DNA of 37,088 nt from Patescibacteria group bacterium (GCA_024654525.1 JANLHI010000013.1:84036-121123), one strand, 5' to 3'. Numbered from the stretch's first letter, positions 14,549 to 37,000 are shown. A program made the numbers and translations. The notes: generated from the sequence alone by a model not told the origin.

Positions 14549-16965
14549 GACACTGACTTCTTTACGCTTTTCTTTGCCTTTGTGTGGGATTTTTTTGTTT
14601 TTTCTTTAGATCCGGAGTTTTTGTCGGTGGATAAGAATTTTGACGAGGAGAATTTACCCAACGTCCTAATAAAAGAGGGCTTTTTCGTCGAAGTTTTAAC
14701 GGGAGCGGGAGGTTTGTTTTTCCACGCGGTGAATCCTTCATCAAGTGCCACTTGTGTTTCCGGTTTGGCGTTCATAATAAATGTGCAATCGGGGTAGCGT
14801 GTGCAGGCGTAAAAAGGTTTACTCCGGCCACGTCCTTTTTTCTCTACAATATCGCCTATTCCGGATTTCGGAATTTGGATTTCAGATGTTTGATTCCCCG
14901 CATTTGTCGTCTGATGTCCGACATTTGATATCTGATATCCAGTGATACATGCCGGACATTTAAATCCCGTCTTATTCCAAATTTTTGAGATTCCTTTGCA
15001 TTTTGGATAGTCGGTGCATCCGAGAAAAAACCCGAATCTTCCGCGTTTCACGTCCATGGATTTACCGCATAAAGGACAGAGCTCCCCGTCGGTTTTTTCC
15101 CTAAGTTCTTTTATTTTTGCCGCCTCTTCCGGCATGGGGAGTGTTACCTTGCTTTCGGGGTCTGGACATGCAAGAAACTTTCCCATTCTGCCGAATTTTA
15201 TCATCATCATTTTCCCGCAGTGAGGACACGGTGTTTCGGAGGTCTCGGTATGTTTCAATACAGTCTTTTCTTTTTCCGTAAGACGAGATTTAAATGGTTC
15301 ATAAAAATCATTACACGCTTTTTCCCATGAAAGTTTTCCTTCCGCAACTTCGTCAAGCTCCTCCTCAATGCGAGAAGTAAAGTGAACATCCACAATTTCC
15401 GGGAAGTGTTCGACGAGAAGATCATTCACCACCACTCCGATTTCCGTGGGGTGGTATGCGCGCTCACGTTTTTCCACATACCCTCGATCCTGAACCGTGG
15501 AAAGAGTGGGGGCATATGTTGAAGGACGACCGATACCTTCGGCTTCGAGAGCTTTGATGAGTGTGGCATCGGTGTAGCGAGGAGGAGGTTCGGTAAAATG
15601 TTGCCTTGGATCGATTGCATCAAGTTTCAGCTTGTCTCCTTCGCGGAGTTCAGGAAGTATTCCTTCTATTTCATCTTCAGGATCGTCGCGTCCTTCGGTG
15701 TATGCGCGGATAAATCCGTCAAAGATTACCACTTGTCCGTGTGCGCGAAATGTATGGTGTCCTTTTTGTCCGATGTCGGCACTGGTTTGTTCGAATCGCG
15801 CATTATGCATCTGTGATGCAATAGTCCGTTTCCAAATAAGGTCATAAAGCCGTTGCGCTCCGCGGTCGCCTACCGATGGATTGGCACGGATACTAAGGTT
15901 AGTCGGTCGTATTGCTTCGTGCGCTTCCTGCGCTCCTTTTGATTTTGTGGTGTAGCGACGAGGATCGGGAGATGCATACTGTGCCCCGAAATTTTCTACG
16001 ATAACGGATTTTGCCTGAACAAGTGCGGATTCAGCAAGATTTACGCTATCGGTTCTCATGTAGGTAATAACCCCTTCCTCATAAAGTCGTTGTGCGACAG
16101 TCATGGTTTGCTTTGCCGAGAATCCAAGTTTTCGGGATGCTTCTTGTTGGAGTGTCGCAGTGGTGAATGGAGCCGAAGGATTTCGGGATATTTCTTTTTT
16201 TGTGACGGAAATTACATGATGAGGGTCCTCTTTCGATTCTTTGGCGATGCTTCGTGCTTGCGCTTCGTTTCGGATCGTCATTTTTGAGATAGCGGTGTCT
16301 TTGAACGACACAAGGCGTCCCGGAAACGATTGACCGCCCGATTTTGTAAATAACGCTTCAATGGTCCAATATTCTTCTTTTGTAAACTTTTCTATTTCCC
16401 GTTCGCGCTCAACAATAAGACGCACCGCAACCGATTGTACGCGTCCTGCAGAAAGACCATAGCGTATTTTTCTCCAAAGAAACGGAGAAAGTTCGTATCC
16501 GACGAGACGATCCAATATCCGGCGTGCCTGTTGTGCATCCACAAGCTTTATATCAAGCGCGCGAGGATTTTTGAGTGCTTCTTCAATCGCATGTTTGGTG
16601 ATTTCGTGAAATACAATTCTTTCCACTCCTTTCTGCCTTTTATTTTTAGTGGGTATATCCGTGAGTTCCAATGCATGCATAAGGTGCCACGCAATAGCTT
16701 CTCCTTCGCGGTCTTCATCAGTTGCAAGGATGATGCGCGATGCAGATTTTACTTGCTTTTTCAGATTTGAGACGACTTCCTTCGCTTTCACTGGAATAAC
16801 ATAAGAAGGGCGGAAGTTATTTTCCACATCAATACCGAGTTTGCTTTTTGGTAAGTCGCGGATATGTCCATATGATGAGGAGAGAGTGTAGTGAGAACCT
16901 AAAAACCGAGAAATAGTTCTCGCTTTCGTGGGGGATTCTACGATGATAAGAGGTTTTTGCGCCAT
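14545..16965 (-). CDS. topA: DNA topoisomerase I with zinc ribbons and a basic tail
   Basis: IVESPTK, ATDEDREGE, SAGRVQS, ITYMRTD, AHEAIRPT and GIGRPSTY motifs; C-terminal C4 ribbons. Confidence 0.97.
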   Translation of the reverse strand: MAQKPLIIVESPTKARTISRFLGSHYTLSSSYGHIRDLPKSKLGIDVENNFRPSYVIPVKAKEVVSNLKKQVKSASRIILATDEDREGEAIAWHLMHALELTDIPTKNKRQKGVERIVFHEITKHAIEEALKNPRALDIKLVDAQQARRILDRLVGYELSPFLWRKIRYGLSAGRVQSVAVRLIVEREREIEKFTKEEYWTIEALFTKSGGQSFPGRLVSFKDTAISKMTIRNEAQARSIAKESKEDPHHVISVTKKEISRNPSAPFTTATLQQEASRKLGFSAKQTMTVAQRLYEEGVITYMRTDSVNLAESALVQAKSVIVENFGAQYASPDPRRYTTKSKGAQEAHEAIRPTNLSIRANPSVGDRGAQRLYDLIWKRTIASQMHNARFEQTSADIGQKGHHTFRAHGQVVIFDGFIRAYTEGRDDPEDEIEGILPELREGDKLKLDAIDPRQHFTEPPPRYTDATLIKALEAEGIGRPSTYAPTLSTVQDRGYVEKRERAYHPTEIGVVVNDLLVEHFPEIVDVHFTSRIEEELDEVAEGKLSWEKACNDFYEPFKSRLTEKEKTVLKHTETSETPCPHCGKMMMIKFGRMGKFLACPDPESKVTLPMPEEAAKIKELREKTDGELCPLCGKSMDVKRGRFGFFLGCTDYPKCKGISKIWNKTGFKCPACITGYQISNVGHQTTNAGNQTSEIQIPKSGIGDIVEKKGRGRSKPFYACTRYPDCTFIMNAKPETQVALDEGFTAWKNKPPAPVKTSTKKPSFIRTLGKFSSSKFLSTDKNSGSKEKTKKSHTKAKKSVKKSVS
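14856..14939. repeat. Degenerate heptanucleotide tandem array inside topA (12 units, 84 nt)
   Basis: ctattcc ggatttc ggaattt ggatttc agatgtt tgattcc ccgcatt tgtcgtc tgatgtc cgacatt tgatatc tgatatc. Confidence 0.75.
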
Positions 16966-16983
16966 AGTGCCGATTGGTGGGTA

Positions 16984-18042
16984 TTATGGGGAGAGTATAT
17001 ACCCACTCCCGGTTTCTTGTACCATGTTTTTAATAAGGAGGAAACTCATCGTGCGATTTACGGTTGCCGCATTGAGTCCTGTTTCGGAGATTACCATGTC
17101 GACGGAAAGAGGAGTGGAAGCGTGGTGCAACGCGCGAAGTACCGCATTTTCTTCGGGGGTGTGTATATCGTGGATGAGCGAAGCGCACGATTGAGGAGGA
17201 GTGATATTGAGATCTTCAAAAATATCTTCTGCGTTGCGAATAAGGCGTGCTCCCGCGCGAAGCAGGTGGTGAGAGCCGCGAAAGTTCGGGTGTGTCACAG
17301 GACCGGGAACTACAAATATTTCACGGTTTTGATCCAGCGCGAAGCGCGCGGTTGCAAGAGCACCGGATCCTTCCGGAGCTTCCACAATCACAGTACCAAG
17401 CGTGAGTCCGCTGATAATCCTGTTTCGTTCAAGGAATCGATGGGGCGCAGGCGCGCTTCCCGGAGGATACTCGGACACAAGAGCGCCTCCTTGCGCAATG
17501 ATGCGCGCGGCAAGTCCGGCGTTGCTTCTCGGGTGTGGGTTTTCAACTCCCCCCGCGAGTACCGCGATTGTATGTCCTTTGTTTGAGAGGCATCCGGTAT
17601 GTGCGGCAACATCGATACCGAACGCAAGCCCGCTTGTGATAACGCATGTAGGAGAAAGGTCGCGCGCGAGAGACTCTGCATATGCGCGTCCTTCGCGAGT
17701 CGCCTTACGGGTTCCCACTACGGCGATTCCATAATGCTCATGTCGAGGGAGAGTACCTTTGACGTAGATTCCGAATGGTGCGTAGGGTATTTCGCGAAGG
17801 AGAGGCGGAAATGATTCATCTTCTCTCATGATGAGAGAAATATTTTGAGACGAGAGCGATGATTCCGCGGAATCGGGCGATATTTTTCCGAAAAGTTTTG
17901 AATGAGACAAAGAGTTCCACGAGGCACTCCACGATGTGTGCTGTGTATGGAGTTTTTCAATTTTTCGATAGTCGCCATCAAGAACGGTTGCGACTGCATG
18001 AAAGAAGCGCCATTCGTTATTATCTGTGGGAGATGAGCTCAT
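16984..18042 (-). CDS. dprA: DNA-processing protein DprA
   Basis: AVVGTRKAT, SGLAFGID, FLERNRIISG, GSGALATA and REIFVVPG motifs; C-terminal winged helix; start chosen at ATG 18042 (ORF extends to 18075). Confidence 0.94.
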   Translation of the reverse strand: MSSSPTDNNEWRFFHAVATVLDGDYRKIEKLHTQHTSWSASWNSLSHSKLFGKISPDSAESSLSSQNISLIMREDESFPPLLREIPYAPFGIYVKGTLPRHEHYGIAVVGTRKATREGRAYAESLARDLSPTCVITSGLAFGIDVAAHTGCLSNKGHTIAVLAGGVENPHPRSNAGLAARIIAQGGALVSEYPPGSAPAPHRFLERNRIISGLTLGTVIVEAPEGSGALATARFALDQNREIFVVPGPVTHPNFRGSHHLLRAGARLIRNAEDIFEDLNITPPQSCASLIHDIHTPEENAVLRALHHASTPLSVDMVISETGLNAATVNRTMSFLLIKNMVQETGSGYILSP

Positions 18043-18114
18043 AATAATGCGAGTATATACTTGATTGTATCGCATATTAGAGAACAGTGAATACGTATTT
18101 GCTAGAATGAAAGA

Positions 18115-18651
18115 GTGGTATTGAATTTTAAACGTACATTGCTTATCAATATTAGTGTTGCAGTTGCCGGCATCGGTGTTCTTGCGGGTGTAATAGGATG
18201 GTTTGCATCCGATATTGAAATGCAGGCAACTATAATAAATAAGGACAGAACACTGGCGCGTGAACGTTCAGCATCAATAGCGGTACTCGCAGAGTTGAAA
18301 AGCAATGCTGCAAAAGCACTGCGGTATGAGCAAAAACTAAATGCATTTCTTCCTACACAGGAACAGCTTCTCGATTTCCCGCGTACACTTGATAACCTTG
18401 CGCGTGTGCGCAGGCTCGCACTCAGTTTTTCTTTCCGGGGAGGGCAGGGTGTGCCGGAAGGGGTAAAGCCGGGTTCGGTAGGATTTACTTTGAGCGCCAC
18501 CGGTGCGCTTAGCGATGTGCTGAATTTTATGAAGGATATTGAAATATCCCCGACACGGTTCCTTGCGACACTTAGCTCAGCAGACCTTACGCGGATCGGT
18601 GAGGGTGAGTATCGGCTTTCGGCGCAGGGAGCAGTCTTCTTTGGAAAATAA
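18115..18651 (+). CDS. PilO-like type IV pilus alignment protein
   Basis: Single N-terminal TM, coiled coil, LP..EQLLDF..L..LA and a ferredoxin-like end G...DVLNF..DIE. Confidence 0.65.
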   Translation: MVLNFKRTLLINISVAVAGIGVLAGVIGWFASDIEMQATIINKDRTLARERSASIAVLAELKSNAAKALRYEQKLNAFLPTQEQLLDFPRTLDNLARVRRLALSFSFRGGQGVPEGVKPGSVGFTLSATGALSDVLNFMKDIEISPTRFLATLSSADLTRIGEGEYRLSAQGAVFFGK

Positions 18652-18677
18652 TCCAGCATGCATACCACACATAAATC

Positions 18678-18893
18678 ATGACTATCCGCAATTTTATACG
18701 AGATCATCGGGAGTTGATGCTCATATTGAGCGCACTCTCTTTTTTAGTGTTATTGATACTCTATGTAATATGGGGAATTTCGTTTCTTACCACACATCTC
18801 ACTCAGGCTATTACCGTAAAGAAAGGGGAAGAAATTAGCGCATCGTTTCGCTTCGAAGAAGCTAAAAAGTTGCATATTCCCGGTGTTGAATAG
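18678..18893 (+). CDS. Small single-TM membrane protein, possibly pilus-associated
   Basis: 71 aa with one hydrophobic helix, directly after the pilO-like gene. Confidence 0.6.
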   Translation: MTIRNFIRDHRELMLILSALSFLVLLILYVIWGISFLTTHLTQAITVKKGEEISASFRFEEAKKLHIPGVE

Positions 18894-18938
18894 TAGTATG
18901 CATGTGTGGTGTTTTTTTAATGGCATCCTTCGTGTATC

Positions 18939-19010
18939 GCGCCCTTAGCTCAGTGGCAGAGCGTTCCCTTGACATGGGAAAGGTCGTAAGTTCGATCCTT
19001 ACAGGGCGCA
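18939..19010 (+). tRNA. tRNA-Val(GAC)
   Basis: GCGCCCT/AGGGCGC acceptor stem, TTCCC-TTGACAT-GGGAA anticodon arm, GTTCGATCC; CCA not encoded. Confidence 0.95.
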
Positions 19011-19111
19011 CGGCGTTGTTGTTTCCGTGATGTATTATTTTTTAGAGAGATGCGGGTATTATTAGAATAAGCGTTGATTTTTCTTCGAAAAATCGTATGA
19101 TGATGTGCAAC

Positions 19112-19186
19112 GCGCGTGTAGTTCAGTGGTAGAACGCTGTCCTGATAAGACAGAGGTCGAAGGTTCGATTCCTTCCACGCGCACCA
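19112..19186 (+). tRNA. tRNA-Ile(GAT)
   Basis: GCGCGTG/CACGCGC acceptor stem, CTGTC-CTGATAA-GACAG anticodon arm, GTTCGATTC and encoded CCA. Confidence 0.95.
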
Positions 19187-19190
19187 GAAC

Positions 19191-19907
19191 ATGTCTCCGG
19201 AAGTTATTTATGAAGATAAAGATGTTGTCGTGCTGAATAAACCAGCGGGTTTTTTAGTGCATCCGATAAAGAATCTAAAAATAAAGAACACGAAATTAAA
19301 AGTAGAAAATGAACCGACGCTTACCGATTGGCTTCTCGCGCGCTATCCGGAGATTTCAAAAGTTGGAGATAATCCCGAGATACGTCCGGGTATTGTACAT
19401 CGTCTTGATCGTGCGACATCCGGCGCGATGATTGTGGCGCGCACACAGGAAAGCTTCCTCTATTTAAAGTCGCTTTTTTTGGGAAGAAAAGTTTGCAAAA
19501 AATATCTTGCGTGGGTGTATGGAGTGGTGAAAGAAAAGAAGGGGATTATTGACAGTCCGATAGGTATTGTAAATGGTACGGTGAAACGCAGTACGCGATC
19601 TTCGAGGGCGGCGCGGGATGCGATTACGCGTTACGATGTGATAAAGAGCATTACTCGCGACAAAGAGACTTTTTCGCTTCTCAGGGTAATGCCTGAAACC
19701 GGACGCACACATCAAATACGCGTACATTGTGCGAGTATGGGACATCCGGTGGTGGGGGATATTCTCTATGGGAAAAAGCGAAAATATTCAGGTATGGTAA
19801 GAATGATGCTTCATGCGTTTTCTTTGGAGCTTCCTCTTCTTTCGGGGAGTGTGGTTCGTTTTGAAGCGGATACACCTCGTGAATTCGATGATTTTGGAAA
19901 AAGATGA
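19191..19907 (+). CDS. RluA/RluD family pseudouridine synthase (no S4 domain)
   Basis: NKPAG, HRLDRATSG, TGRTHQIRVH, GHPVVGD..YG and LHA motifs. Confidence 0.93.
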   Translation: MSPEVIYEDKDVVVLNKPAGFLVHPIKNLKIKNTKLKVENEPTLTDWLLARYPEISKVGDNPEIRPGIVHRLDRATSGAMIVARTQESFLYLKSLFLGRKVCKKYLAWVYGVVKEKKGIIDSPIGIVNGTVKRSTRSSRAARDAITRYDVIKSITRDKETFSLLRVMPETGRTHQIRVHCASMGHPVVGDILYGKKRKYSGMVRMMLHAFSLELPLLSGSVVRFEADTPREFDDFGKR

Positions 19908-20041
19908 CTTTTCGTTGTATTATAGAAATAACCCTTGCAGAATCAGCTAAAAGTTTCCTGGTAAAGAGGGGTTATCCACAGTATGATTTATTTCGATTTG
20001 TTAGAGTAATATCTATACAGAGGTAGACTAAATTTCTTGCA

Positions 20042-20638
20042 ATGAAACAACATAAAATATCCGAAGAAAAGAAAGGGTTTACGCTTATTGAGCTTCTTGT
20101 GGTTATTGCGATTGTCGCGATTCTTGCGGTGGTGTTGGTGCTTACTTTAAACCCCGCTCAGCTTTTGAGACAGGCGCGGGACTCAACCAGAATTTCGGAT
20201 TTCGCAACGCTAAAGAGCGCGTTAAGTTTATATCTCGCAGATGTCGCGAGCCCTAGTCTTTCCGGGGGGAGTAGTACGTGCTATGCGCACGCTTCCTCGT
20301 CCGTACCTGCATCTTCCGGGTGTAGTGGCCGTTACACAACCGCAACAAACGTATCTACATCGGCGTTGCGTAATGTTACGGGAACCGGATGGATTCCGGT
20401 GAATTTCAATGCTATCAGCTCCGGCGCTCCTATCAGTGTTGAGCCGATTGATCCCATTAATAATGCAACAAATTTTTACTCTTATGCGGCTGATACCACC
20501 AATCAAACTTTTGAGCTTAATGCAAAAATGGAAAGTACTCGTTATGCCTCAGGTGGTTCGGGTGATGTGGAGTCTACTGACGGAGGATCGAGTTCTACTG
20601 TCTACGAAGTGGGAACGGCACCGGGTTTGAGTTTGTAG
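20042..20638 (+). CDS. Type IV major pilin candidate
   Basis: Class III signal KKG|FTLIELLVVIAIVAIL, ARDSTRISD helix, one Cys pair; has its own upstream intergenic region. Confidence 0.9.
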   Translation: MKQHKISEEKKGFTLIELLVVIAIVAILAVVLVLTLNPAQLLRQARDSTRISDFATLKSALSLYLADVASPSLSGGSSTCYAHASSSVPASSGCSGRYTTATNVSTSALRNVTGTGWIPVNFNAISSGAPISVEPIDPINNATNFYSYAADTTNQTFELNAKMESTRYASGGSGDVESTDGGSSSTVYEVGTAPGLSL

Positions 20639-20645
20639 ACGAGCA

Positions 20646-21218
20646 ATGCATGTATTAGAAGCGATGAGCGTGGCGCTCCTCGGATTTTTGTTTTTGGTAC
20701 AAGTATGGAATCGCAAGCGTTTTCCTTCCTCGGTTATCGCCGTGTGGGGAATTGGAATCGTGGTGATATCCGGTTTTTTGATCCGAAGCTCATACTTTAT
20801 ATATGCATCATGGAAGAGCGACGGTCTTGGACACTTTTTTCTTCCTCCGCACAATTCAATTTATTACTTTATAAGGTATGTAATCGAGAGAATGTGGGCG
20901 CCGTGGGTTATTGCGTGTGGCGTGGGAGTGATTGTAATTTGGGTTGCGGTACGTATGAATAGAGCGCATGGAGAACGTTTTTTCAGAGAAGGAGAAGCGT
21001 CTCTTGCCGGCTTTTGTTTTTTCTCGGTGGGATATCCTGCATTTTTATTCTATCTCCTCGCCATATTACTTGTGGGCGCAATTGTTACCGCGGTGAACCA
21101 TGTTCGTGGAGGGGGAAGATCATCTCTGTATTATTGGTGGGTTCCTATTGCGGTCTCTGTTATAATTTTAAAGGTATATGTTATTCCAGAGACGATGCTA
21201 AATTTTTTTGCATTATAA
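20646..21218 (+). CDS. Polytopic membrane protein in the pilus locus, possibly a divergent prepilin peptidase
   Basis: About 6 TM helices; D-x5-FLPP and EGE..LAG...VG segments echo A24 peptidase motifs; lies between pilin and pilB. Confidence 0.55.
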   Translation: MHVLEAMSVALLGFLFLVQVWNRKRFPSSVIAVWGIGIVVISGFLIRSSYFIYASWKSDGLGHFFLPPHNSIYYFIRYVIERMWAPWVIACGVGVIVIWVAVRMNRAHGERFFREGEASLAGFCFFSVGYPAFLFYLLAILLVGAIVTAVNHVRGGGRSSLYYWWVPIAVSVIILKVYVIPETMLNFFAL

Positions 21219-21313
21219 AAAAACTTCCTTTTCATAACAGATTTTTACCGCAATCAAGTTCATACTACATTTCCAAGCAAAAATAATTCTCAATTATTTT
21301 CACACGCAATACA

Positions 21314-23026
21314 ATGAAACTTCCCATTCCTTCGCCACAATTAAAACGACGCCTTATAAGCGAGGGTTTGATTACTGGCGAGCGGTTTGATTTATTGTAT
21401 GCCGAAGCGGATAGAAAAAATCAAAGTGTGATTGATGTTTTGGTTTCGGAAGGAGTTGTGGAAGCTGAATATCTGGGAGATTTAATGGCAAAAATGTTGG
21501 GAGTGGCTCGTGTTAATTTACATCTGAATCCGATTGATAAGAATATGGTGCAACTGCTTTCCGAGGATATCGCGCGTCAACGACAAGTGATTGTGTTTGG
21601 CAAAGAAAGTAATGGTACGTATGACGTTGCGATGGCGGATCCCTCCGACCTTGAAACCATCGAATTTCTTACGCAACATCTTAAAACAAAAGTGAGGCCG
21701 TTCCTTGCAATGTCGGAAGATTTGAATCGCGGTTTTGCTATCTATGGCTTTGAAGTCGGGAAGGATTTTAAAAAACTTATCGAAGAGAATATTCATGCTT
21801 CTCTACAAAAGACGGCTAAAAATGCCGAGGAGGCGGCTGCGGAGTTGCCAATAGTCGCGATAGTGGATAATTTACTTTCGTTTGGAGAAGCATCTCGTGC
21901 ATCGGATATTCATATTGAAGTGTTGGAGGATAGGACTTTGATTCGTTACCGGATAGACGGAATTCTTCATGAGGCGATGGAAATTCCTAAACTTATACAT
22001 CCCGCGCTTCTTGCGCGTATTAAACTTCTTTCCGGACTCAAAATAGACGAACATTATAGACCTCAAGACGGACGATTCAGACATCGGATTGTAAATCAAA
22101 CCGTAGATGTGCGTGTTTCGGTGATGCCTACGTTTTATGGAGAGAAAATCGAAATGCGTTTGTTAGAAGCTGCCCAAAAACCGCTTTCACTTGAGGAACT
22201 TGGATTTTTACCGCCTGTCGCCGCAGTGATTAGAACAAATCTCAAGAAGGCGTACGGCATGGTGCTTTCATGTGGACCTACTGGATCAGGAAAAACCACG
22301 TCGCTTTACGCGCTCATCAATATGCTCAATAAACCGACTGTAAATATTGTGACGATCGAAGATCCGATCGAGTACAACATGCGTTATATTAATCAAACGC
22401 AAATTAATGCTCAGGCGGGAGTCACGTTTGCAAGCGGACTTCGCGCCATTCTAAGGCAAGATCCGAATATTATCATGGTGGGGGAAATTCGAGACGGTGA
22501 GACGGCGAATATTGCGGTACAGTCCGCACTTACTGGACATCTCTTATTATCGTCGCTTCATACGAATGATGCGCCCACGGCGATTCCGAGACTTTTCGAT
22601 CTTGGTATCCCTCCATTTCTTGTCGCATCGGTACTTAATGTGGTGATTGCGCAACGACTTGTGAGGAAAATTTGTTCTACATGTATTTTTTCCGAGGATC
22701 TTAAGTCTGATTATGCGCAAGTGATCCAAACTCAATTTGCCGAATTGGGTATTTCGAAAGAGGCGCATCTTCCAAAAACCATCTATCGCGGGAAGGGGTG
22801 TGGCGCGTGTGGGGGGAGCGGGTATAAGGGAAGACTTGGTATCTTCGAAGTGCTTGAAGTTACCGACGAAGTGAAAGCGTTGATTAACAATGCCCACTTT
22901 GACTTGGAAGGGCTTTATGCGATAACGCGCAAGGCGGGGATGAAAAGTATGTTCGAAGATGGGCTTGAAAAAACCGAACTCGCGCTTACTACCATCGAAG
23001 AAGTATTAAGAGTTATCAGAGAGTAA
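21314..23026 (+). CDS. pilB: Type IV pilus assembly ATPase PilB/GspE
   Basis: ASDIHIE, PQDGR, GPTGSGKTT, TIEDPIEY, LRQDPNIIMVGEIRD, TGHL..SSLHTND and CxxC..CxxC. Confidence 0.94.
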   Translation: MKLPIPSPQLKRRLISEGLITGERFDLLYAEADRKNQSVIDVLVSEGVVEAEYLGDLMAKMLGVARVNLHLNPIDKNMVQLLSEDIARQRQVIVFGKESNGTYDVAMADPSDLETIEFLTQHLKTKVRPFLAMSEDLNRGFAIYGFEVGKDFKKLIEENIHASLQKTAKNAEEAAAELPIVAIVDNLLSFGEASRASDIHIEVLEDRTLIRYRIDGILHEAMEIPKLIHPALLARIKLLSGLKIDEHYRPQDGRFRHRIVNQTVDVRVSVMPTFYGEKIEMRLLEAAQKPLSLEELGFLPPVAAVIRTNLKKAYGMVLSCGPTGSGKTTSLYALINMLNKPTVNIVTIEDPIEYNMRYINQTQINAQAGVTFASGLRAILRQDPNIIMVGEIRDGETANIAVQSALTGHLLLSSLHTNDAPTAIPRLFDLGIPPFLVASVLNVVIAQRLVRKICSTCIFSEDLKSDYAQVIQTQFAELGISKEAHLPKTIYRGKGCGACGGSGYKGRLGIFEVLEVTDEVKALINNAHFDLEGLYAITRKAGMKSMFEDGLEKTELALTTIEEVLRVIRE

Positions 23027-26418: not shown

Positions 26419-26481
26419 GTGACGCAGTGCATAAAAAACGGAAAGGGGAGATTGAAAATACAGTATAATAATGAGGGTTAT

Positions 26482-26916
26482 ATGTCCGCACTACTTATCA
26501 CTCATTACGTAATTCATATTCAGAAGGGGCAAGCCGCTCTTGCATTTGTTTTCCTTGTGGGAAGTATCGTTATCCTTGTGGGTGTAACAATCGGTTTTCT
26601 GGCGTCGAGTTTTGTAAATTCAAGCTTCGGATTTTCTGCTTCGCAACGTGCGCTTGCTACCGCGAACGCGGGAGCAAATGACGCGTATATCCGTGTATTG
26701 CGAAATAAAGATTTTTCGGATGTGGTGGGGTATTCTTTGCCGTTAGGGGAAAATTCAGCAACAGTAACAGTGACGCAAGATTCTCCTTCAGTAGGAGTTG
26801 TCACCGTCCTTTCAATAGCAACGGTTTCATTTCATACGAGAAAAGTGCAAATGACGTTATCGGTTTCATCATCTACGGGATCGGTAGAGCTTATAGGACG
26901 AAGAGAGTTACAATAA
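26482..26916 (+). CDS. Minor pilin (PilX/GspK-like, no Glu5)
   Basis: KG|QAALAFVFLVG lacking E5; RALATANAGANDA PilX N-terminal pattern. Confidence 0.75.
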   Translation: MSALLITHYVIHIQKGQAALAFVFLVGSIVILVGVTIGFLASSFVNSSFGFSASQRALATANAGANDAYIRVLRNKDFSDVVGYSLPLGENSATVTVTQDSPSVGVVTVLSIATVSFHTRKVQMTLSVSSSTGSVELIGRRELQ

Positions 26917-29032: not shown

Positions 29033-29110
29033 ATATGAGGTCTATCATAGAAGTATAAATCCCAAAAATCAACGTGGGAAATCCATTATAAAGGAAATAT
29101 GTAATTTGGC

Positions 29111-29139
29111 TTGTAGTTTGTGAGACGTTCCGTTATACT
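29111..29139 (+). promoter_or_regulatory. Putative sigma70 promoter for lepB-hisS
   Basis: TTGTAG-17 bp-TATACT. Confidence 0.5.
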
Positions 29140-29162
29140 CACAATCGAAGTGCTATTCAATC

Positions 29163-29717: not shown

Positions 29718-29730
29718 AATTCATTTGCTT

Positions 29731-31035
29731 ATGTCTAAAAAAATAAAAAAAAGAAAAGAAATCGCAAAAATTCTTCAAGAGCCGAAAGGCATGCATGACG
29801 TATTGCCTGTCGACGAGATGTACTGGTCTCGTATCAGAGAAGTAGTCAGTGAAATTTCAGAAGGGTATGGATTTCACCGCATAGAAACCCCTTTATTGGA
29901 ATTTGAAGAACTCTTCCAAAAAACCGTCGGCGAATCAAGCGATATTGTAGCTAAGGAGATGTATACCCTTAAAACACGTGGAGGGGATATGCTGGCGTTG
30001 AGACCTGAGTTCACCGCTTCAACCATGAGAGCATATCTTGGACATAGTCTTGGACGTTTGGGACAGCCACAGCGGCTTTATACGTTTGGTCCCGTATTTC
30101 GCCATGATAATCCTCAGGCAGGAAGATACCGTCAATTTACGCAGGCTAACTTTGAAATTATTGGGGGGCAAAATGACCCTGTGTACGATGCGCATATCAT
30201 ACTCCTTTCGATGCGTTTTCTTGATATATTGCGAATCAAAGGGGTTTCGTTAAGAATCAATTCTATAGGATGTCGTGTATGTCAACCTGCATACAGGCGT
30301 CAATTGCAGAATTATTATAAAAGTCACGAAAAAGAATTGTGCGCCGATTGCGTACGCCGTGCGAAGACGAATCTTCTGAGACTTCTCGACTGCAAAGAAC
30401 AAGGGTGTGTAAAACTGCGTGAACATGCGCCGAATATTTTGGATAAGCTTTGTGTTACCTGTAGCGCGCATTTTAAATCGGTAATCGAGTACCTTGATGA
30501 GCTGAAAATTTCTTACGTTTTGGATAATACGCTTGTCCGCGGACTGGATTATTACAGTCGTACCGTATTCGAATGTGTGATCGAAGCGGAAGGAAGAGAA
30601 TTTGGAGCGTTGGCCGGTGGCGGACGATATGATTATCTTGCGGAGTTTTTAGGGGGACACGCGACTCCGGGAGTGGGAGTGGCGGTTGGCATTGAACGTG
30701 TTATCGGAGTGATCAAAGCCCAAGGAATAGTATTTTCTTCAAAGCAAAAAAAGATGGTTTTTGTGGTACATGCGGGAGAGATGGCTAAGAAAAAGGCATT
30801 CCGTTTTGTGGAAGAGTTTCGACGTGCGGGGATATATGTGAAAGAATCTCTTGCAAAAGACTCTCTCAAAGCCCAGTTAAAATTTGCGGATAAGGAAAAA
30901 GCCCGTATCGCGTTGATTTTTGGACAAAGAGAGATTTATGAAGGTACGGTAATCGTGCGAGATTTAGAAAACAGCTTACAAGAAACCGTTCCTCTGGATA
31001 GAATAGTCGAGGAGATTAAAAAACGATTAAAGTAG
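29731..31035 (+). CDS. hisS: Histidine--tRNA ligase
   Basis: PKGMHD, LRPEFTA, FRHDNPQAGRYRQF, VRGLDYY and GGGRYD; anticodon-binding domain; start at ATG 29731. Confidence 0.96.
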   Translation: MSKKIKKRKEIAKILQEPKGMHDVLPVDEMYWSRIREVVSEISEGYGFHRIETPLLEFEELFQKTVGESSDIVAKEMYTLKTRGGDMLALRPEFTASTMRAYLGHSLGRLGQPQRLYTFGPVFRHDNPQAGRYRQFTQANFEIIGGQNDPVYDAHIILLSMRFLDILRIKGVSLRINSIGCRVCQPAYRRQLQNYYKSHEKELCADCVRRAKTNLLRLLDCKEQGCVKLREHAPNILDKLCVTCSAHFKSVIEYLDELKISYVLDNTLVRGLDYYSRTVFECVIEAEGREFGALAGGGRYDYLAEFLGGHATPGVGVAVGIERVIGVIKAQGIVFSSKQKKMVFVVHAGEMAKKKAFRFVEEFRRAGIYVKESLAKDSLKAQLKFADKEKARIALIFGQREIYEGTVIVRDLENSLQETVPLDRIVEEIKKRLK

Positions 31036-31249
31036 GTATAGGTGGAGAGGATTTGTATATTTATGCCACTATGGGGTATTATGCACCAGCAAATTCCTAG
31101 GAGCCTTATAAGGAAAAATAAGAGGGGGTTTCGCAAGGTGGTGTATTTCTCGGGTGTGTCGTTATGACGAAAGAGAGATCGGTACATAACGCACAAAAGC
31201 AGTGTTTATAAAGAGTCGTATGAGGTAATGCAAAAAAAATAAATTCACA

Positions 31250-31462
31250 ATGATTGAAGTAAGAAAAAAAGAAGGAGAAAGTGCAAGCGCGCTTTTTTTT
31301 CGGTTTTCCCGGAAAATAAAGCGTAGTGGAGTGCTTAAGGAATCAAAAGCGCGTCGGTTTTACGATCGACCGGCGAGTCGCGTGAAACGGCGTGTTTCGG
31401 CGCTTCATCGCGAGGCGAAAAAAAGTAATATGGAGCACATGAAGAGAGCGGGAGTTGTATAG
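31250..31462 (+). CDS. rpsU: 30S ribosomal protein bS21
   Basis: V.KKEGES....F.RF.RKIKRSGVL.E...RRFY.RP; basic 70 aa; upstream of yqeY. Confidence 0.8.
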   Translation: MIEVRKKEGESASALFFRFSRKIKRSGVLKESKARRFYDRPASRVKRRVSALHREAKKSNMEHMKRAGVV

Positions 31463-31502
31463 TGAGAATAGGCGAAAGCAGCTTATTTATTTTTTATATT
31501 TT

Positions 31503-31946
31503 ATGACTCTTAAAGAGCGCATTATGGAAGATGTGAAGGTGGCGATGAAGTCGGGAGATTCGGCGCGTTTGGGAGTGTTGAGGATGATGATGGCGGCAAT
31601 CCGGAATCGCGAAATAGAAATGAGAACCGAGAAATCCACGGAGGTTTCCGATGCGGATGTGATCGCGGTACTGGAGAAAGAAGCGAAAAAGCGGCGAGAG
31701 GCATCGGATTTGTACAAAAAAGGAGCGCGAGCTGATCTTGCAAAAAATGAACTTTATGAAGTCGAGGTGATAGCAGGTTATCTTCCTCCTCAACTGAACG
31801 ATGAAGAAATTATGATGGTTATTGAGAAATGCAAAGTCGCAGGGGCAAATGATTTTGCATCGCTTATGCGAGATGCCATGAAAGAAATGAAAGGCAAGGC
31901 GGATGGGCGTCGAGTGGGAGAGCTGGTGAAGCAGTCACTGGGCTGA
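31503..31946 (+). CDS. GatB/YqeY domain protein
   Basis: LKERI..D.K.AMK, KEAKKRRE, YLPPQL and GKADG. Confidence 0.9.
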   Translation: MTLKERIMEDVKVAMKSGDSARLGVLRMMMAAIRNREIEMRTEKSTEVSDADVIAVLEKEAKKRREASDLYKKGARADLAKNELYEVEVIAGYLPPQLNDEEIMMVIEKCKVAGANDFASLMRDAMKEMKGKADGRRVGELVKQSLG

Positions 31947-31996
31947 CGCGGTGGGGTATATCGCACAAAAAGAGCGTAACTATCTATACGTGTGTA

Positions 31997-32488
31997 GTGA
32001 AAAAGAATATCAAAACAAAAGACAGAAATTTGGGAGAGAGGGGTAGCAGTAAGATAAATCACAATGCATATGTGATAAAGGCGGGAAAAAAGACTCTCGC
32101 GATTTTGGGTTTTCCCACGGATTCTGTCGATATTATTTTTGCACAAGACAGTGTAATGAGGGATATAAAATTTGCCACTACCGGAATTCGGAAACGTGTG
32201 GTGAACGTGCTTGCGTTTGAAGAACCTCGGGAGTTTCCACATCCGGAAAGAAAGGGGTTTATGGGTGAGGTATATCTCAATGGCGAGCGTTATTCAAAAG
32301 ATCGTGAGTATATGACTTTTTTACTAATACACGGAATTCTCCATCTTGCAGGCTTTCGTCATAATGGACGTCGTGATACGATTGAGATGCAACGCATGGA
32401 GCAGATGCTTGTTTTGTGTGTTACCAAAAAAGAAATATATAAAAACAAGCGTACGCGGACTTGCAATGCACGCATTATCACACGATGA
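31997..32488 (+). CDS. ybeY: rRNA maturation endoribonuclease YbeY
   Basis: NVLAF, GEVYL and HGILHLAGFRH (H-x3-H-x5-H). Confidence 0.88.
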   Translation: MKKNIKTKDRNLGERGSSKINHNAYVIKAGKKTLAILGFPTDSVDIIFAQDSVMRDIKFATTGIRKRVVNVLAFEEPREFPHPERKGFMGEVYLNGERYSKDREYMTFLLIHGILHLAGFRHNGRRDTIEMQRMEQMLVLCVTKKEIYKNKRTRTCNARIITR

Positions 32489-33723
32489 CATCCTCATTTA
32501 TTACAGCACTTGATATCGGAACATCTTCCATTAAGGTGGTGGTGGCGGAGAATGTGCATGGGCGTCCGGTAATTCGTTTTGTGCATCGTGAACAATCGGC
32601 GGGTGTGAGAAAGGGTGCGGTGGCGGATATCACCGAGGCATCACATGCGGTGAGTCGTGTATTGAGTGAGGTTCGAAGAGTCTCAAGGCCGGCGCTAAAA
32701 AATCTCTATCTTGCAATAGGAACGACACATGCAAAAGTACAGACATCACGCGGTATCGTTGCGGTTTCGCGTGCGGATACGGAAATATATCAAGACGACG
32801 TAGATCGTGCGGTGAAGGCGGCACAAGCGGTGAATCTTTTGCCGAATCGAACGATTATCCATAACGTCACGCGGGAGTTTATTGTTGATGGAGTAGGGGA
32901 CATTGCGGATCCGTTGGGACTTTCCGGTTCCCGTCTCGAAGTAGGGAGTTTTGTAATAGATGCGTTTACGCCGCATGTTAAAAATTTAATGAGAGTGGTT
33001 GAGCTTGCCGGTGGAAGAGTACGTGGGTTGGTGTGGGCTCCGCTGGTCGCAAGTCGTGCAGCACTCTCGCGAGCACAACGAGAATTAGGAACACTTCTTA
33101 TCGATATCGGAAGTGGCACAACGGGCATGAGTGTGTATGAAGAAAATAAGCTTTCTGGTGTGGCGAAGTTTCCGGTGGGGAGCGCGAATATTTCGAACGA
33201 TCTTGCAGTGGGGCTTCGTATTCCGGTAGATGCCGCGGAAGATTTAAAGCTTAATTATGGATATGCCCTTGCTCAAGATGTATCGGGTAAAGATATGATC
33301 GAACTTCGAAAATTTGCTCCGGATGTAAAGGGAGCAACGTCTCGTCGTTTCATTTCGGAGATTATAGAATCGCGACTTGCGGAGATTCTCGAGTTTGTCC
33401 ATAATGAGCTCAAGCTGATGGGTAAGGTGGGGAAGCTTCCCGGAGGAGTAGTGCTGGTAGGGGGAGGTTCCAAGCTTCCCGGATTGACCGATTTGGTGAA
33501 GCAGGAATTAAAATTGGCATCCCAGATTGGCGCGACAGTTGAAGGTTTTGGATCGGGAAGTGGGGAGTTTTCTGGTTATTTCGAGGATCCTGAATTTGCA
33601 ACAGTGCTAGGCCTTGTATTGTGGGGATCCGAGGATGCGGAGTGGGAAGCGAATCGCACATTCAAGAATCTTAAGTTTGAGTTCAAGACGGTAAAGGAGA
33701 TGTTTCGACATTTTCTTCCTTAA
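32485..33723 (+). CDS. ftsA: Cell division protein FtsA
   Basis: ALDIGTSSIK, IDIGSGTT, AEDLK, IIESRLAEI and VLVGGGSKLPG; C-terminal amphipathic helix. Confidence 0.95.
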   Translation: MTSSFITALDIGTSSIKVVVAENVHGRPVIRFVHREQSAGVRKGAVADITEASHAVSRVLSEVRRVSRPALKNLYLAIGTTHAKVQTSRGIVAVSRADTEIYQDDVDRAVKAAQAVNLLPNRTIIHNVTREFIVDGVGDIADPLGLSGSRLEVGSFVIDAFTPHVKNLMRVVELAGGRVRGLVWAPLVASRAALSRAQRELGTLLIDIGSGTTGMSVYEENKLSGVAKFPVGSANISNDLAVGLRIPVDAAEDLKLNYGYALAQDVSGKDMIELRKFAPDVKGATSRRFISEIIESRLAEILEFVHNELKLMGKVGKLPGGVVLVGGGSKLPGLTDLVKQELKLASQIGATVEGFGSGSGEFSGYFEDPEFATVLGLVLWGSEDAEWEANRTFKNLKFEFKTVKEMFRHFLP

Positions 33724-33738
33724 TTATTTTGTATTGTT

Positions 33739-34995
33739 ATGGCGAGCATCCAACAAAAAGACAAACAAACATCCCCCATTGCAAGTGTAAAAGTAGTGGG
33801 AATAGGGGGGGGTGGTGGCAATGCGGTTTCGCGTATCAGTTCTGATTTTGTGCGAGGCGTGCAATTTTTTGCAATCAACACCGATCATCAGGATTTGGAT
33901 CATGTAGATGTTCGAAATAAGATTTACATCGGCAAGAATCTTACGCGGGGATTAGGTACGGGAATGAACCCCGATTTGGGAAGACAGGCGATGGAAGAAA
34001 ATCGTTCGGAAATTACGGAAGCGCTTCGCGGCGCTGACTTGGTATTTCTTACCGCGGGTTTTGGAGGGGGTACGGGAAGCGGAGGTATGCCGGTAGCGGC
34101 GGAAATAGCGAAACAGCTTGGATCGCTTGTAGTGGCGGTGGTTACAAAACCATTTGCGTTTGAGGGTAGTCAACGGGAACGTATTGCACAGGAAGCGATT
34201 GTGAAAATGAAAGATAAAGTTGATGCGCTTATCGTAGTTCCCAATGACCGTATTTTCTCCATTATCAAAAAAGAAACGCCTATTCTTAAAGCGTTTGAAG
34301 CGATTGATGACGTACTTCGTAATTCATTGCGTGGCATAGTGGAATTGGTTACGTCACCGGGGCTTATCAATCTTGATTTTGCGGATGTAAAAAGCATTCT
34401 TGAGGATGCAGGTTCCGCGATTGTCGGTGTGGGAATTGCATCGGGCCCCGAGCGGGCGGTAAATGCGGTGCAAAGTGCATTGAATTCTCCTCTCCTCGAA
34501 ACGAGTGCGGAAGGAGCAAAGCGCGTGTTGTTGGGTATTTCCGGTTCGCGAGATCTTACGATGAACGAGATAAACGAGGCGGCAAAAATAGTCGCACAAG
34601 TTGCGGATCCTTCAGCGCGCATTATATTCGGTGCATATCACGACCGACGTCTTCGTGCGAGGCAACTGAAAATTACGCTTGTTGCGGCCGGATTCAACGG
34701 TGCAGGAGGGGCATCTACTCTTTTCGGAGGAGCGCCGACACCGACAAGACTTCCATTTTTCGAAGGACTAAAATCACAGTCACAATCACAGTCTGGACGT
34801 ACCGAAGATCGCAGTAAATATACCGTCGAAGACACATCCGCAAAGAAGCCTATGCCCATTTTTTCAGAACGTCAGGATAAAATAGAGAAGTCGGAATCAA
34901 AAGGGGATGCGCACGCCAAGAAATCAGAAAAACAGGAGCAACAGGAGGTGGATATTTGGGATATTCCTACCTTTCTCAGAAGGAAGAAAAAATAG
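33739..34995 (+). CDS. ftsZ: Cell division protein FtsZ
   Basis: GIGGGGGNAV, GFGGGTGSG, PFAFEG and INLDFADV; C-terminal DIPTFLRR. Confidence 0.97.
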   Translation: MASIQQKDKQTSPIASVKVVGIGGGGGNAVSRISSDFVRGVQFFAINTDHQDLDHVDVRNKIYIGKNLTRGLGTGMNPDLGRQAMEENRSEITEALRGADLVFLTAGFGGGTGSGGMPVAAEIAKQLGSLVVAVVTKPFAFEGSQRERIAQEAIVKMKDKVDALIVVPNDRIFSIIKKETPILKAFEAIDDVLRNSLRGIVELVTSPGLINLDFADVKSILEDAGSAIVGVGIASGPERAVNAVQSALNSPLLETSAEGAKRVLLGISGSRDLTMNEINEAAKIVAQVADPSARIIFGAYHDRRLRARQLKITLVAAGFNGAGGASTLFGGAPTPTRLPFFEGLKSQSQSQSGRTEDRSKYTVEDTSAKKPMPIFSERQDKIEKSESKGDAHAKKSEKQEQQEVDIWDIPTFLRRKKK

Positions 34996-35009
34996 TTTTT
35001 ATACCAGGA

Positions 35010-36113
35010 TTAGAGAAGGTGGTTCCCATCCTCTGCGTCCTCAAATGAGGGCGCTTCGAGTTTCATTGGCTCAATGCCGATTGTTTCTCCACTGATTTTT
35101 ACCACATCCTTATCTATCTTCCCGAATTCCTTGTGGGCGTTATTGTAGGCACTTACGGTGGTGGTCAGATTTTTTCCGATTTTCCCGAAGTATTCTTCGT
35201 ACGCGATAAGATGCTTCCCAAGATGACTTACTTGTTTGATGATATCTTTTGTTTGCTCCGAAATTTTTTGATTACGGAGACCTTGAAGTACCGTTTGTAG
35301 ATATGCAAGAAAAGATGTCGGAGAAACAATAACTACTTTTTTCTGGAACGCATAGGATATAAGATTTTTTTCTTCCGTTGCACTCCCCACTTTATTAATA
35401 AGCAAATCATAATAAATCGCCTCTGAAGGAATGAACATAAATGCAAAATCCATCGTTTCTTCCTCGGGTTTTACATATTTTGAAGTTTCATCGATACGCA
35501 TCTTGATGTCAGAAATAAATGCAGCTTCATACTTCTTCTTATCAAGTGGATCGGCGGTTTCTGCAAAACGATTATAATTCTCAAGACTGAATTTTGAATC
35601 AATGGGGATAATCCTTTTATCGACAAATACCACTGCATCCACAATAAGACCCTTTCCTGTTTTCTCATCTTTGCCAAGCGGATACTGCATTTGATATCCC
35701 CCGGGAGGCAGGACGTTTTTCAATACATTTTCCAGATAATATTCTCCCAAAATGCCCCGTTGTTTGGGGTTGTTAAGGGTATCTTGTAATTTTTTAAGCT
35801 GATCGGTAAAGCCAACGACCTGTTTATTGGTTTCTCCGAGTTGTGTGAGTTTCTCGGTTACGTCGCCCATAATTTTTACGCTCTGACCGAATTGCTGTTG
35901 CATCGCGCGCGTGACTTCACTTACGGTGTGCTTTGACTCGTTCGCAACTTGCCCAAGCCTTGTGTCGAGTGTCCGCGTGAGTTCATTTAATTGGTTTTGG
36001 AGAAGGATGAGTGATTGATCAGGCTTCTGCTCTTTCGGTGAGAGAAGTGTGCGGAGGTAAAAGACACCGCCGACGAGTACCGCAAGGATGAGAATAAGAA
36101 ATATGAGTTCCAT
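35010..36113 (-). CDS. rmuC: DNA recombination protein RmuC
   Basis: N-terminal TM, coiled coil, RGILGE..LE, D....IPIDSKF, MFIPSE and VSPTS. Confidence 0.92.
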   Translation of the reverse strand: MELIFLILILAVLVGGVFYLRTLLSPKEQKPDQSLILLQNQLNELTRTLDTRLGQVANESKHTVSEVTRAMQQQFGQSVKIMGDVTEKLTQLGETNKQVVGFTDQLKKLQDTLNNPKQRGILGEYYLENVLKNVLPPGGYQMQYPLGKDEKTGKGLIVDAVVFVDKRIIPIDSKFSLENYNRFAETADPLDKKKYEAAFISDIKMRIDETSKYVKPEEETMDFAFMFIPSEAIYYDLLINKVGSATEEKNLISYAFQKKVVIVSPTSFLAYLQTVLQGLRNQKISEQTKDIIKQVSHLGKHLIAYEEYFGKIGKNLTTTVSAYNNAHKEFGKIDKDVVKISGETIGIEPMKLEAPSFEDAEDGNHLL

Positions 36114-36129
36114 TTCTGCATTATACCTC

Positions 36130-36157
36130 AAAACAAAAAACGCCTTTTTGAAGGGCG
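36130..36157 (-). terminator. Minus-strand intrinsic terminator immediately upstream of the rmuC -10 element
   Basis: Minus strand reads CGCCCTT-CAA-AAAGGCG followed by TTTTTTGTTTT. Confidence 0.55.
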
Positions 36158-36319
36158 ACTTTTCGCTGTTTCATTCTTTCGAGTGGGATTATCGTACAAT
36201 ATATTTGAATTGGGAATCGATATGCATGTCGAATTCACGACATGCAGTATCGCGATTACCATAACCGAGCATGCGAGAAAGAAGCAATCAGAGGTCAATT
36301 TTATGCTAGAGTGTGAAAC

Positions 36320-37000
36320 ATGAAAGATATCCTCCTGATCGACAAGCCTGCAGGCATCACCTCATTCGACGTGATACGGAAGTTGCGTCAAAAAATGAAA
36401 ATTCGCAAAATGGGACACGCAGGTACGCTCGACCCCATGGCAACGGGACTTATGATTGTAGGCGTGAGAGAGGGTACAAAAAAACTGAATGAGTATTTGA
36501 AATTGCCAAAGGTGTACGAAGCGGAAGTAATGCTCGGGATTAGGACGGATACGGGGGATAGAGAGGGAAAGATTCTTGAAAGTTCCAATGTCAAATTCCA
36601 AAGTTTCAAAGAGGGAGAGATTAGGAGCGCTTTGGAATTGCTTCGCGGGAAAATAGTTCTACCGGTTCCAAAATATTCTGCGGTGAAGATGCGAGGTACG
36701 CCACTCTACGCGCGAGCGAGAAAAGGAGAAGATTTTGAAGCACCGAAGAAGGAGATGGAAGTGATGAGAATCACTTTGGAGAGAATATGGAATATGGAAT
36801 ACGGAATGAAGAATGAGGGAATGGGTATCGTATTGAAATTCGAAGTGGAGGTGGCAAGTGGAACATATATTCGCTCTCTTGCCGAGGAGATCGGAAGACG
36901 ACTTGGCGTGCCTGCGACACTTTGGAATTTAAGAAGGACACAAATAGGACAGGGAGAAAGCGCATTGAAGATAGAAGACGCGGAGAAGTCACCCTTCTGA
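36320..37000 (+). CDS. truB: tRNA pseudouridine(55) synthase, no PUA domain
   Basis: IDKPAGITS, GHAGTLDPMATG, YSAVK, SGTYIRSL and LRRT. Confidence 0.95.
   Translation: MKDILLIDKPAGITSFDVIRKLRQKMKIRKMGHAGTLDPMATGLMIVGVREGTKKLNEYLKLPKVYEAEVMLGIRTDTGDREGKILESSNVKFQSFKEGEIRSALELLRGKIVLPVPKYSAVKMRGTPLYARARKGEDFEAPKKEMEVMRITLERIWNMEYGMKNEGMGIVLKFEVEVASGTYIRSLAEEIGRRLGVPATLWNLRRTQIGQGESALKIEDAEKSPF
36783..36825. repeat. Heptanucleotide tandem array inside truB
   Basis: gaatatg gaatatg gaatacg gaatgaa gaatgag (g)gaatggg. Confidence 0.8.

Follow-up and report, generated by a model that had tools for sequence, protein, structure and literature searches.

Short tandemly repeated repetitive (STRR) sequences are heptanucleotide repeats that were originally defined in heterocystous cyanobacteria, and such cyanobacterial repeats have long served, over decades, as markers in fingerprinting. 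In this work, we describe heptamer arrays of a similar kind in a 37,088-base stretch of DNA from a Patescibacteria group bacterium (contig C25:84036-121123 of the source genome, G000; hereafter the window), where they lie inside the genes topA, truB and probably that of an RluA-family pseudouridine synthase. We give a probability of about 0.6 to the reading that these arrays are solo members of an STRR-type heptamer population tied to elements that carry a gene for the intervening-sequence protein of 23S rRNA (S23p/IVS, Pfam PF05635). Arrays were sought over the whole G000 genome (992,634 bases, 33 contigs, 45% G+C) by scoring the self-match at each lag (+1/-1, drop-off 5), with lags 4, 5, 8, 10, 11 and 13 and three triplet-shuffled genomes as controls. 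The close relatives of G000, based on TruB, carry the label Candidatus Liptonbacteria (Candidate Phyla Radiation, CPR, that is, Patescibacteria); G001, G003 and G004 are its congeners and G005 belongs to another genus.

Two lines of published work, represented here by parts of the cited texts, come close to these arrays. In cyanobacteria, the P6b stem of the Nostoc trnL, or tRNA-Leu(UAA), intron is made of two heptamer classes and shows 7- or 14-nt indels as well as replacement of one class by the other (PMC4476775), and in Nostoc PCC 7120 heptamer repeats lie near start codons, among them TTTTGAA (bioRxiv 10.1101/2022.06.06.494920), a unit also seen in G000. In the parts available, the cyanobacterial heptamer literature that we found neither links the repeats to a four-helix-bundle gene nor states an origin or function for them. 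In gamma-proteobacteria, a 23S intervening sequence (IVS) with an S23p open reading frame (ORF) has a 28-bp stem with two to three tandem heptameric repeats, the number varying by strain, and is cut by RNase III at the first of them (PMC4990558). Among the rRNA insertions of CPR bacteria, PF05635 ORFs are found, as are many short insertions that are not introns and are regarded as RNase III-processed IVSs (PMC11270868), and the main text of that paper contains the strings 'repeat' and 'heptam' 0 times. As far as their available parts go, both papers give the function of S23p/IVS proteins as not known (PMC4990558, PMC11270868). A literature search, with subscription journals mostly outside it, returned neither a general link between S23p and heptamer arrays nor heptamer arrays in Patescibacteria/CPR.

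The arrays of G000 share with STRR sequences the 7-nt tandem unit, several recurring families and a distribution dispersed over the genome, and are of the cyanobacterial kind, as had been suggested in a prediction made from the sequence of the window alone (hereafter the original prediction). As in the Nostoc intron, paired arrays form a stem in a structured RNA. They differ from STRR sequences in their host, which is a member of the Patescibacteria and not a heterocystous cyanobacterium, and in lying also in frame in housekeeping proteins and in 16S and 23S genes. An element in the 16S gene of G000 is like the S23p IVS in that its terminal inverted repeats form a stem, the loop of which holds a PF05635/S23p ORF. 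The window arrays, however, sit in protein genes, without an ORF and without a partner arm, and most of the PF05635 elements that we found are located not in rRNA but in pilin leaders or between the genes of operons.

Heptamer arrays in the coding sequences of the window

The original prediction had placed at least five heptamer arrays inside coding sequences, and the host reading frames are indeed all open. The sites in topA and truB are the following (window coordinates):

14545..16965, minus strand: topA, DNA topoisomerase I, host gene (Pfam Toprim, Topoisom_bac and Zn_ribbon_Top1; ORF open)
14856..14939, minus strand: degenerate heptamer array of topA, about 12 units of the TCnGATn / GGATTTC family, encoding about residues 676-703
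36320..37000, plus strand: truB, tRNA pseudouridine-55 synthase, host gene (Pfam TruB_N)
36783..36825, plus strand: second heptamer array of truB, about 6 units of the GAATATG family, encoding WNMEYGMKNEGMG (Tandem Repeats Finder, TRF, score 43)
36580..36607, plus strand: first truB site named by the original prediction, with 12/21 matches, at chance level and unsupported as an array

Within the topA array, 42 of 77 positions match at lag 7, and other lags give 15-28%; this level is reached at 20 places of the genome at lag 7 versus 0-2 for each control lag, and TRF reports the segment 14910-14939. An alignment of TopA from G000 and 13 orthologues, drawn from 24 loci fetched, shows the array as an insertion between the motifs CPxC and GDIVEKKGRGR, in the third zinc ribbon. 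The spacer measures 30 nt in seven relatives and 90 nt in G000, 84 in G004, 84 in G002, 78 in G005 and 90 in G008, which amounts to net gains of 60, 54, 54, 48 and 60 nt. All of these expanded spacers have a lag-7 match of 0.52-0.63, but their units differ (G000, G004/G002, G005 and G008 each having their own), so that this loop was repeatedly expanded or replaced, in every case with period 7. The hairpin formed by the G000 array is weak (z -2.0 to -3.5), and in the inserts of G000 and G008 one half is partly complementary to the other.

The second truB array has 27 matches out of 36 at lag 7, a level reached at 5 places of the genome versus 0 at the control lags. In an alignment of 19 TruB sequences (G000 and 18 orthologues) it sits in a hairpin loop for which sequences from other genera have 0-4 residues; here G000 exceeds its congeners G001 and G003 by 21 nt, and more distant orthologues lack the loop. 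TruB of G004 carries three related heptamers at the same site, followed by other sequence. No hairpin was found in the array itself (fold z +1.4). At the first truB site, the same alignment revealed no indel beyond about 2 residues relative to the orthologues. Judging by the two alignments, the topA array and the second truB array are lineage-specific loop insertions.

At the site of the window array, TruB of G002 (locus L007) has a 141-nt in-frame insert made of nested inverted repeats rather than heptamers, which resembles a small palindromic element.

The remaining sites of the window lie in an RluA-family gene and in a pilin-like gene:

19191..19907, plus strand: RluA-family pseudouridine synthase, host gene (Pfam PseudoU_synth_2, 1.1e-31)
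19266..19313, plus strand: A-rich stretch in this gene, probably a decayed heptamer array
26419-26916: type IV pilin-like gene (pilX-like), without a Pfam match
26491..26518, plus strand: possible remnant array in the pilX-like leader, with 12/21 matches here and 20/47 across the whole leader, at chance level

The A-rich stretch of the RluA-family gene has 20 lag-7 matches out of 41, scores higher at lag 6, and its level is reached at 206-405 places of the genome at any lag. In this stretch G000 is 6-8 residues longer than G001, G003 and G007, a gain of 18-24 nt, and G004 has a clean (AAATTCC)x4 heptamer array at the identical site. Because the extra residues of G000 and the clean array of G004 coincide, the stretch is probably a decayed heptamer array, as judged by comparison of the orthologues and at chance level on statistics alone. 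The levels of the pilX-like leader and of the first truB site (12/21 in both) are matched at hundreds of places at any lag. Significant arrays occur in other pilin leaders, for example the solo array C1:27223-27249, and solely through these is an array in the pilX-like leader plausible, though not established. Hence, of the five arrays originally listed, those of topA and the second truB site stand, the RluA-family one fails the statistics and is retained by comparison, the pilX-like one is weak, and the first truB site drops out.

The period-7 population of the genome

At lag 7, 56 segments of the genome scored at least 12, whereas lags 4, 5, 8, 10, 11 and 13 gave 6, 3, 5, 2, 5 and 1 segments, respectively, and the triplet-shuffled genomes gave 1, 0 and 0 segments at lag 7. 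With a score of at least 16, there were 20 segments at lag 7 versus 0 at the control lags; lags 14 and 21 were elevated, as harmonics of 7. TRF (score at least 40) reported 17 period-7 arrays, compared with 2 for period 6 and 1 for period 8, and gave 69-94% matches for the arrays of the window. A 100-kb stretch of Escherichia coli K-12 with one rRNA operon held 0 arrays scoring at least 12, compared with 5.6 per 100 kb in G000. We conclude that the genome-wide population of period-7 arrays is real; a lack of excess over shuffled sequence, which would have refuted the original prediction, does not apply. Codon structure is not its cause, because lags 4, 10 and 13 have the codon phase of lag 7; the DNA-level process unrelated to codons that the original prediction proposed is supported. 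A preference for 7 nt at the first duplication was considered and rejected, the enrichment of two-copy repeats being similar for unit lengths 5-9. The specificity for period 7 resides in the multi-copy degenerate arrays.

The 56 arrays are spread over 11 contigs: 29 lie in ORFs of at least 150 aa, 17 in intergenic or short-ORF DNA, 8 in or beside rRNA genes and 2 beside the PF05635 gene of contig C1. Because ORFs of at least 150 aa make up 85% of the genome, they are depleted in arrays (binomial p 3e-9), 27 of the 56 falling in the other 15%. The highest density is found in the 16S and 23S rRNA genes, and the arrays cannot be regarded as mainly a coding feature, as they had been portrayed; the depletion in ORFs is what the proposed selection for frame-preserving lengths predicts. 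The hosts comprise TopA, TruB, a class V aminotransferase (4 arrays), a MurD-like ligase, LeuRS, TsaD, MiaA, Alr, SecA, Fmt, FolD, a prepilin peptidase and two class I aminoacyl-tRNA synthetases with histidine-phosphatase inserts, in agreement with the claim that housekeeping genes are reached. Class I synthetases of the Ile/Val type with His_Phos_1 inside the catalytic domain are encoded at C16:99975-103418 and C2:74738-77677.

The arrays in the aminotransferase, TsaD and Alr lie in length-variable loops, as do those of TruB, TopA and RluA, and the idea that tolerant loops receive them holds. The expected clustering of insert lengths at multiples of 21 nt does not: only TruB (+21) fits, the gains being 60, 54, 54, 48 and 60 nt in TopA, 18-24 nt in RluA and 39 nt in TsaD.

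The view that the unit differs at each site is only partly right. The units are related: identical canonical units are shared by 27 array pairs versus 4.6 expected, and pairs of units at distance 1 number 110 versus 59 expected. The TCnGATn family of the topA array recurs in the 16S and 23S genes and in one aminoacyl-tRNA synthetase gene. In the order, 57 of 301 genomes have its pattern, and in the phylum 28 of 401, compared with 5 and 8 for the reversed control. The unit of the topA array is also that of the arms of the 16S element, and the unit of the truB array that of the arms of a PF05635 element on contig C1.

The nearest metagenome relative of the aminotransferase is 57% identical over a partial length. 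Taxonomically unassigned metagenome contigs with such relatives (L141-L219) have an excess at lag 7, with 15 arrays in 35 kb and 42 in 405 kb, and 0 lag-7 arrays were found in the 61 kb of metagenome contigs above 60% G+C. One of the arrays, on contig L182, is a 194-nt near-perfect (AGCTAGA)n tract.

S23p/IVS genes with heptamer arms

PF05635 is the four-helix-bundle '23S rRNA intervening-sequence protein' (S23p/IVS), with an ORF of about 120 residues. It was present in 27 of the 41 genomes searched, including G000, which has four matches, on contigs C1, C16, C18 and C20, and none on the contig of the window. We fetched 40 of the 87 matches listed, with 500 nt on each side, from 12 genomes (every match of G000, G001, G005, G012 and G025, and for seven more genomes the matches with the better scores). 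Lag-7 arrays (score at least 10) were found on both sides of the ORF in 25 of these 40 loci and on one side in 7, and the flanks were complementary at 17/20 or better in 30 of 40, versus 6 of 200 mismatched pairs. The heptamer unit is particular to each copy, so that the arms are not conserved ends of the transposase kind. Pilus-gene regions of G001, G005 and G022 (51 kb in all) had arrays 12 times denser within 130 nt of PF05635, and many of the remaining ones were paired hairpins without an ORF. In G000, the elements and rRNA genes concerned are:

C1:27672-28094: PF05635 element whose arms have the GAATATG unit of the window truB array
C18:17962-20024: 16S rRNA gene, interrupted at helix 6 by an IVS of about 440 nt
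C18:18027-18470: 16S element, with one arm at 18027-18060, the PF05635 ORF and the complementary arm at 18437-18470, followed by the rest of the 16S gene
C2:20073-23502: 23S rRNA gene, 3430 nt versus the 2925 positions of the Rfam model

The Rfam match to the 16S gene has its 5' end at 18331, but its first 100 nt are unalignable with relatives and the true 5' end lies at about C18:17962; rRNA gene calling is affected, since the covariance-model match misplaced the 5' end. By its layout, the interrupting element, which is also present in G005, is a classical intervening sequence with a heptamer-built stem. Other rRNA insertions specific to G000 (compared with G001, G026 and G029) mostly consist of two complementary heptamer arms, and a G000-specific insertion of 86 nt lies in the 16S gene at C18:18558-18643. 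The heptamer-arm hairpins of the 23S gene reach -43 to -59 kcal/mol (fold z -7.5 to -10). A variable site of the 16S gene carries a heptamer hairpin in G000, an array with another unit in G001 and yet another unit in G008.

The original prediction saw no enzyme in the window and called for a gene family that tracks array density. Neither PF05635 in the window nor a known enzyme accounting for the arrays was found, in keeping with the first point, which needs the qualification that PF05635 travels with the arrays and has four copies elsewhere in the genome. It is also a family that goes with array density: among the sampled loci, and without phylogenetic correction, genomes with PF05635 held 88 arrays in 244 kb and those without it 4 in 83 kb. 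Further protein-coding loci gave 16 arrays in 12.6 kb for G001 (6 copies of PF05635), 6 in 11.7 kb for G004 (4 copies), 2 in 12.6 kb for G003 (2 copies) and 0 in 16.5 kb for G007 and G013 together (0 copies). All 8 genomes positive for the TCnGATn pattern had at least 2 copies of PF05635, versus 4 of 19 negative ones. Reverse transcriptase (PF00078) was tried as a tracking family and rejected: it is present in 22 of the 41 genomes regardless of arrays, being missing from the array-rich G025, G028 and G032 and present once in each of the array-poor G010 and G013.

A tblastn search of plasmids with the PF05635 protein of contig C1 returned 39 records, mainly from Nostoc, Calothrix, Trichormus and other cyanobacteria, plus Riemerella. 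The 16 nearly full-length loci fetched, near-duplicates and partial matches being skipped, include several that are mutually homologous and so not independent; 14 of them (13 of 15 cyanobacterial and the one from Riemerella) have arrays (score at least 9) on both sides, one has an array on one side and one has none, with nine unit types overall. The plasmid genes sit between neighbours such as cas6 and cas4 or the two subunits of ribonucleotide reductase. Complementary heptamer arms around PF05635 genes recur, therefore, in three phyla. On plasmids of Pseudanabaena, Picosynechococcus and Anabaena (L272, L273 and L277), the gene is wedged inside CRISPR-cas operons (cas6|cas4, cas10|cmr3).

Several of the right arms of PF05635 elements are translated as a type IV pilin-like leader. 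At C1:27675-28670 (L244), an open frame of 332 residues runs from PF05635 through a linker encoded by heptamers into a type IV pilin-like N-terminus (QQGFSLVEV...); were it translated whole, cleavage by prepilin peptidase would part the two halves. Similarly long PF05635 frames exist in G012, G025, G019, G005 and G002. The closest solved structure is that of a Xanthomonas S23p-type protein (2gsc).

PF05635 shares the four-helix-bundle fold family of Avd, a protein of diversity-generating retroelements (weak bAvd Pfam match), but the presence of reverse transcriptase is unrelated to arrays across the 41 genomes. The only reverse transcriptase of G000 lies 5 kb from an arm-less PF05635 gene (C16:166238-166924 and C16:171904-172215), and the two may represent a diversity-generating retroelement with its Avd.

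Explanations for the arrays

The arrays occur in three settings: as stems flanking PF05635, as ORF-less hairpins in variable helices of 16S and 23S rRNA, and as single arrays in intergenic DNA, pilin leaders and surface loops of housekeeping proteins. If the arrays of topA, truB and the RluA-family gene are solo members of one STRR-type population, as we favour, they would grow and shrink in DNA-level steps of 7 nt, through slipped-strand or hairpin-assisted duplication, and a copy inside a gene would survive only if it sits in a tolerant loop and adds a net length divisible by 3. The one direct piece of evidence for such steps, which are otherwise deduced, is the published difference of two versus three units in one S23p IVS. 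The arrays may be seeded or maintained by the PF05635 element, or by its protein, and the stems may be RNase III sites at which the element is cut out of the host RNA; an RNase III gene is present in G000.

Several results weigh against this reading. To our knowledge, no repeat-making biochemical activity has been described for PF05635. For the majority of arrays, no element to which they belong is visible, as 44 of the 56 are solo; outside rRNA, the direct flanks of PF05635 account for only 2 of the 56, and in the 16S element the closing arm scores 13 and counts as one of the 56, but the opening one scores 11 and does not. Eight of the 40 PF05635 loci have no array, two of the four of G000 among them. 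The cross-genome sample consists of loci taken for other reasons (3.6-20 kb per genome) and is biased to rRNA and a few genes, and the association of arrays with PF05635 (Spearman rho 0.53) is given without phylogenetic correction; moreover, G033 and G034 have 2 arrays each without a PF05635 match, and G021 and G038, with 4 copies, had 0 arrays in their 3.6 kb. The enrichment of exact two-copy repeats, 1.3-2.5 times, is common to unit lengths 5-9. The arrays are degenerate, and with only 10 tracts of at least 2.5 exact copies genome-wide, ongoing slippage shows no sign here. The TopA inserts of G004, G002 and G005 do not form significant hairpins; with these and the truB array lacking one, a hairpin origin for every in-gene array was rejected.

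A broader proposal can be put forward tentatively, with well under even odds: the S23p/PF05635 gene with complementary heptamer arms would be a widespread selfish hairpin cassette that, itself or through its protein, seeds and maintains arrays genome-wide, and cyanobacterial STRR sequences and the in-frame arrays of TopA, TruB and further housekeeping genes would be its by-products or footprints. Its range would span Patescibacteria, cyanobacteria and Bacteroidota, as well as the gamma-proteobacterial IVS known from the literature, and RNase III excision at the heptamer stem would let it live in rRNA, operons and pilin leaders.

An alternative to the favoured reading, which we doubt, is plain microsatellite dynamics, in which a lineage-specific bias of replication or repair favours 7-nt slippage everywhere and the link to PF05635 is non-causal, its genes simply lying in hairpins made of whichever repeat is most frequent locally. 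The solo arrays far from PF05635, which are the majority, would follow naturally from it, as would the many unit types, the different units at the one TopA site and the commonness of ORF-less hairpins; the variation between two and three units reported in the available part of one study fits slippage as well (PMC4990558). Slippage would not readily produce, however, a sharp peak at 7 with none at 5 or 8 (score at least 16) from two-copy seeds that are unspecific. In addition, the array-free relatives of the same family are exactly those without PF05635, and the build of a gene plus arms recurs in three phyla and, according to the literature, in the gamma-proteobacterial IVS.

It is unlikely that the in-gene arrays are footprints or copies of a mobile hairpin element that inserted ready-made, similar to a miniature inverted-repeat transposable element (MITE) or to the palindromic elements of Rickettsia. 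The latter are in-frame selfish repeats in protein genes, palindromes of about 100-150 bp with a family consensus. The arrays of G000 resemble these Rickettsia elements in being tolerated in frame in surface loops (TopA, TruB, RluA, TsaD, Alr and the aminotransferase), but they lack a consensus and conserved ends, vary in unit and length, and are mostly free of hairpins. Unit families common to distant sites and genomes, as the TCnGATn pattern is in comparison with its reversed control, would agree with mobility, and so would the partly complementary halves of the TopA inserts of G000 and G008 and the palindromic insert of 141 nt in TruB of G002. Against it stand the separate unit of each copy, a truB array without a hairpin, lengths and units that vary at one site among close relatives, and the lack of an associated transposase. 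Finally, chance, base composition or heptad selection at the protein level is very improbable, since, although by statistics alone three of the five named sites do not rise above chance and the arrays are AT-rich, same-phase lags and triplet shuffles gave 0-6 segments versus 56, arrays also occur in rRNA and intergenic DNA, and the period is 7 nt and not 21 and is missing from the E. coli stretch; chance is refuted for the genome-wide signal and still holds for the first truB site, and the pilX-like leader may be due to it.

Phase-variable contingency loci, in which changes in the copy number of long perfect tracts shift the reading frame, offer a further comparison. They are like the arrays of G000 in having short tandem units, of a length that is not a multiple of 3, in or near genes; however, the G000 arrays are degenerate and frame-keeping, lie in housekeeping genes and give no sign of on/off switching.

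The favoured reading, that the window arrays belong to a population tied to S23p/IVS elements, connects heptamer repeats of the cyanobacterial type with S23p/IVS genes in an association that can be tested in three phyla, and sister genera with and without both PF05635 and arrays provide natural contrasts. A repeat process that is not based on triplets can add peptides to TopA, TruB, aminoacyl-tRNA synthetases and SecA and helices to rRNA, which bears on the origin of the unusual insertions in proteins and rRNA of the genome-reduced CPR bacteria.

Between 20042 and 28519, the window contains a type IV pilus cluster with PilB- and PilC-like genes and several pilin-like ones, and dprA (16984-18075) lies a few kilobases away. 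PF05635 cassettes are present in the syntenic pilus cluster of G005, and the cluster of the window has 0.

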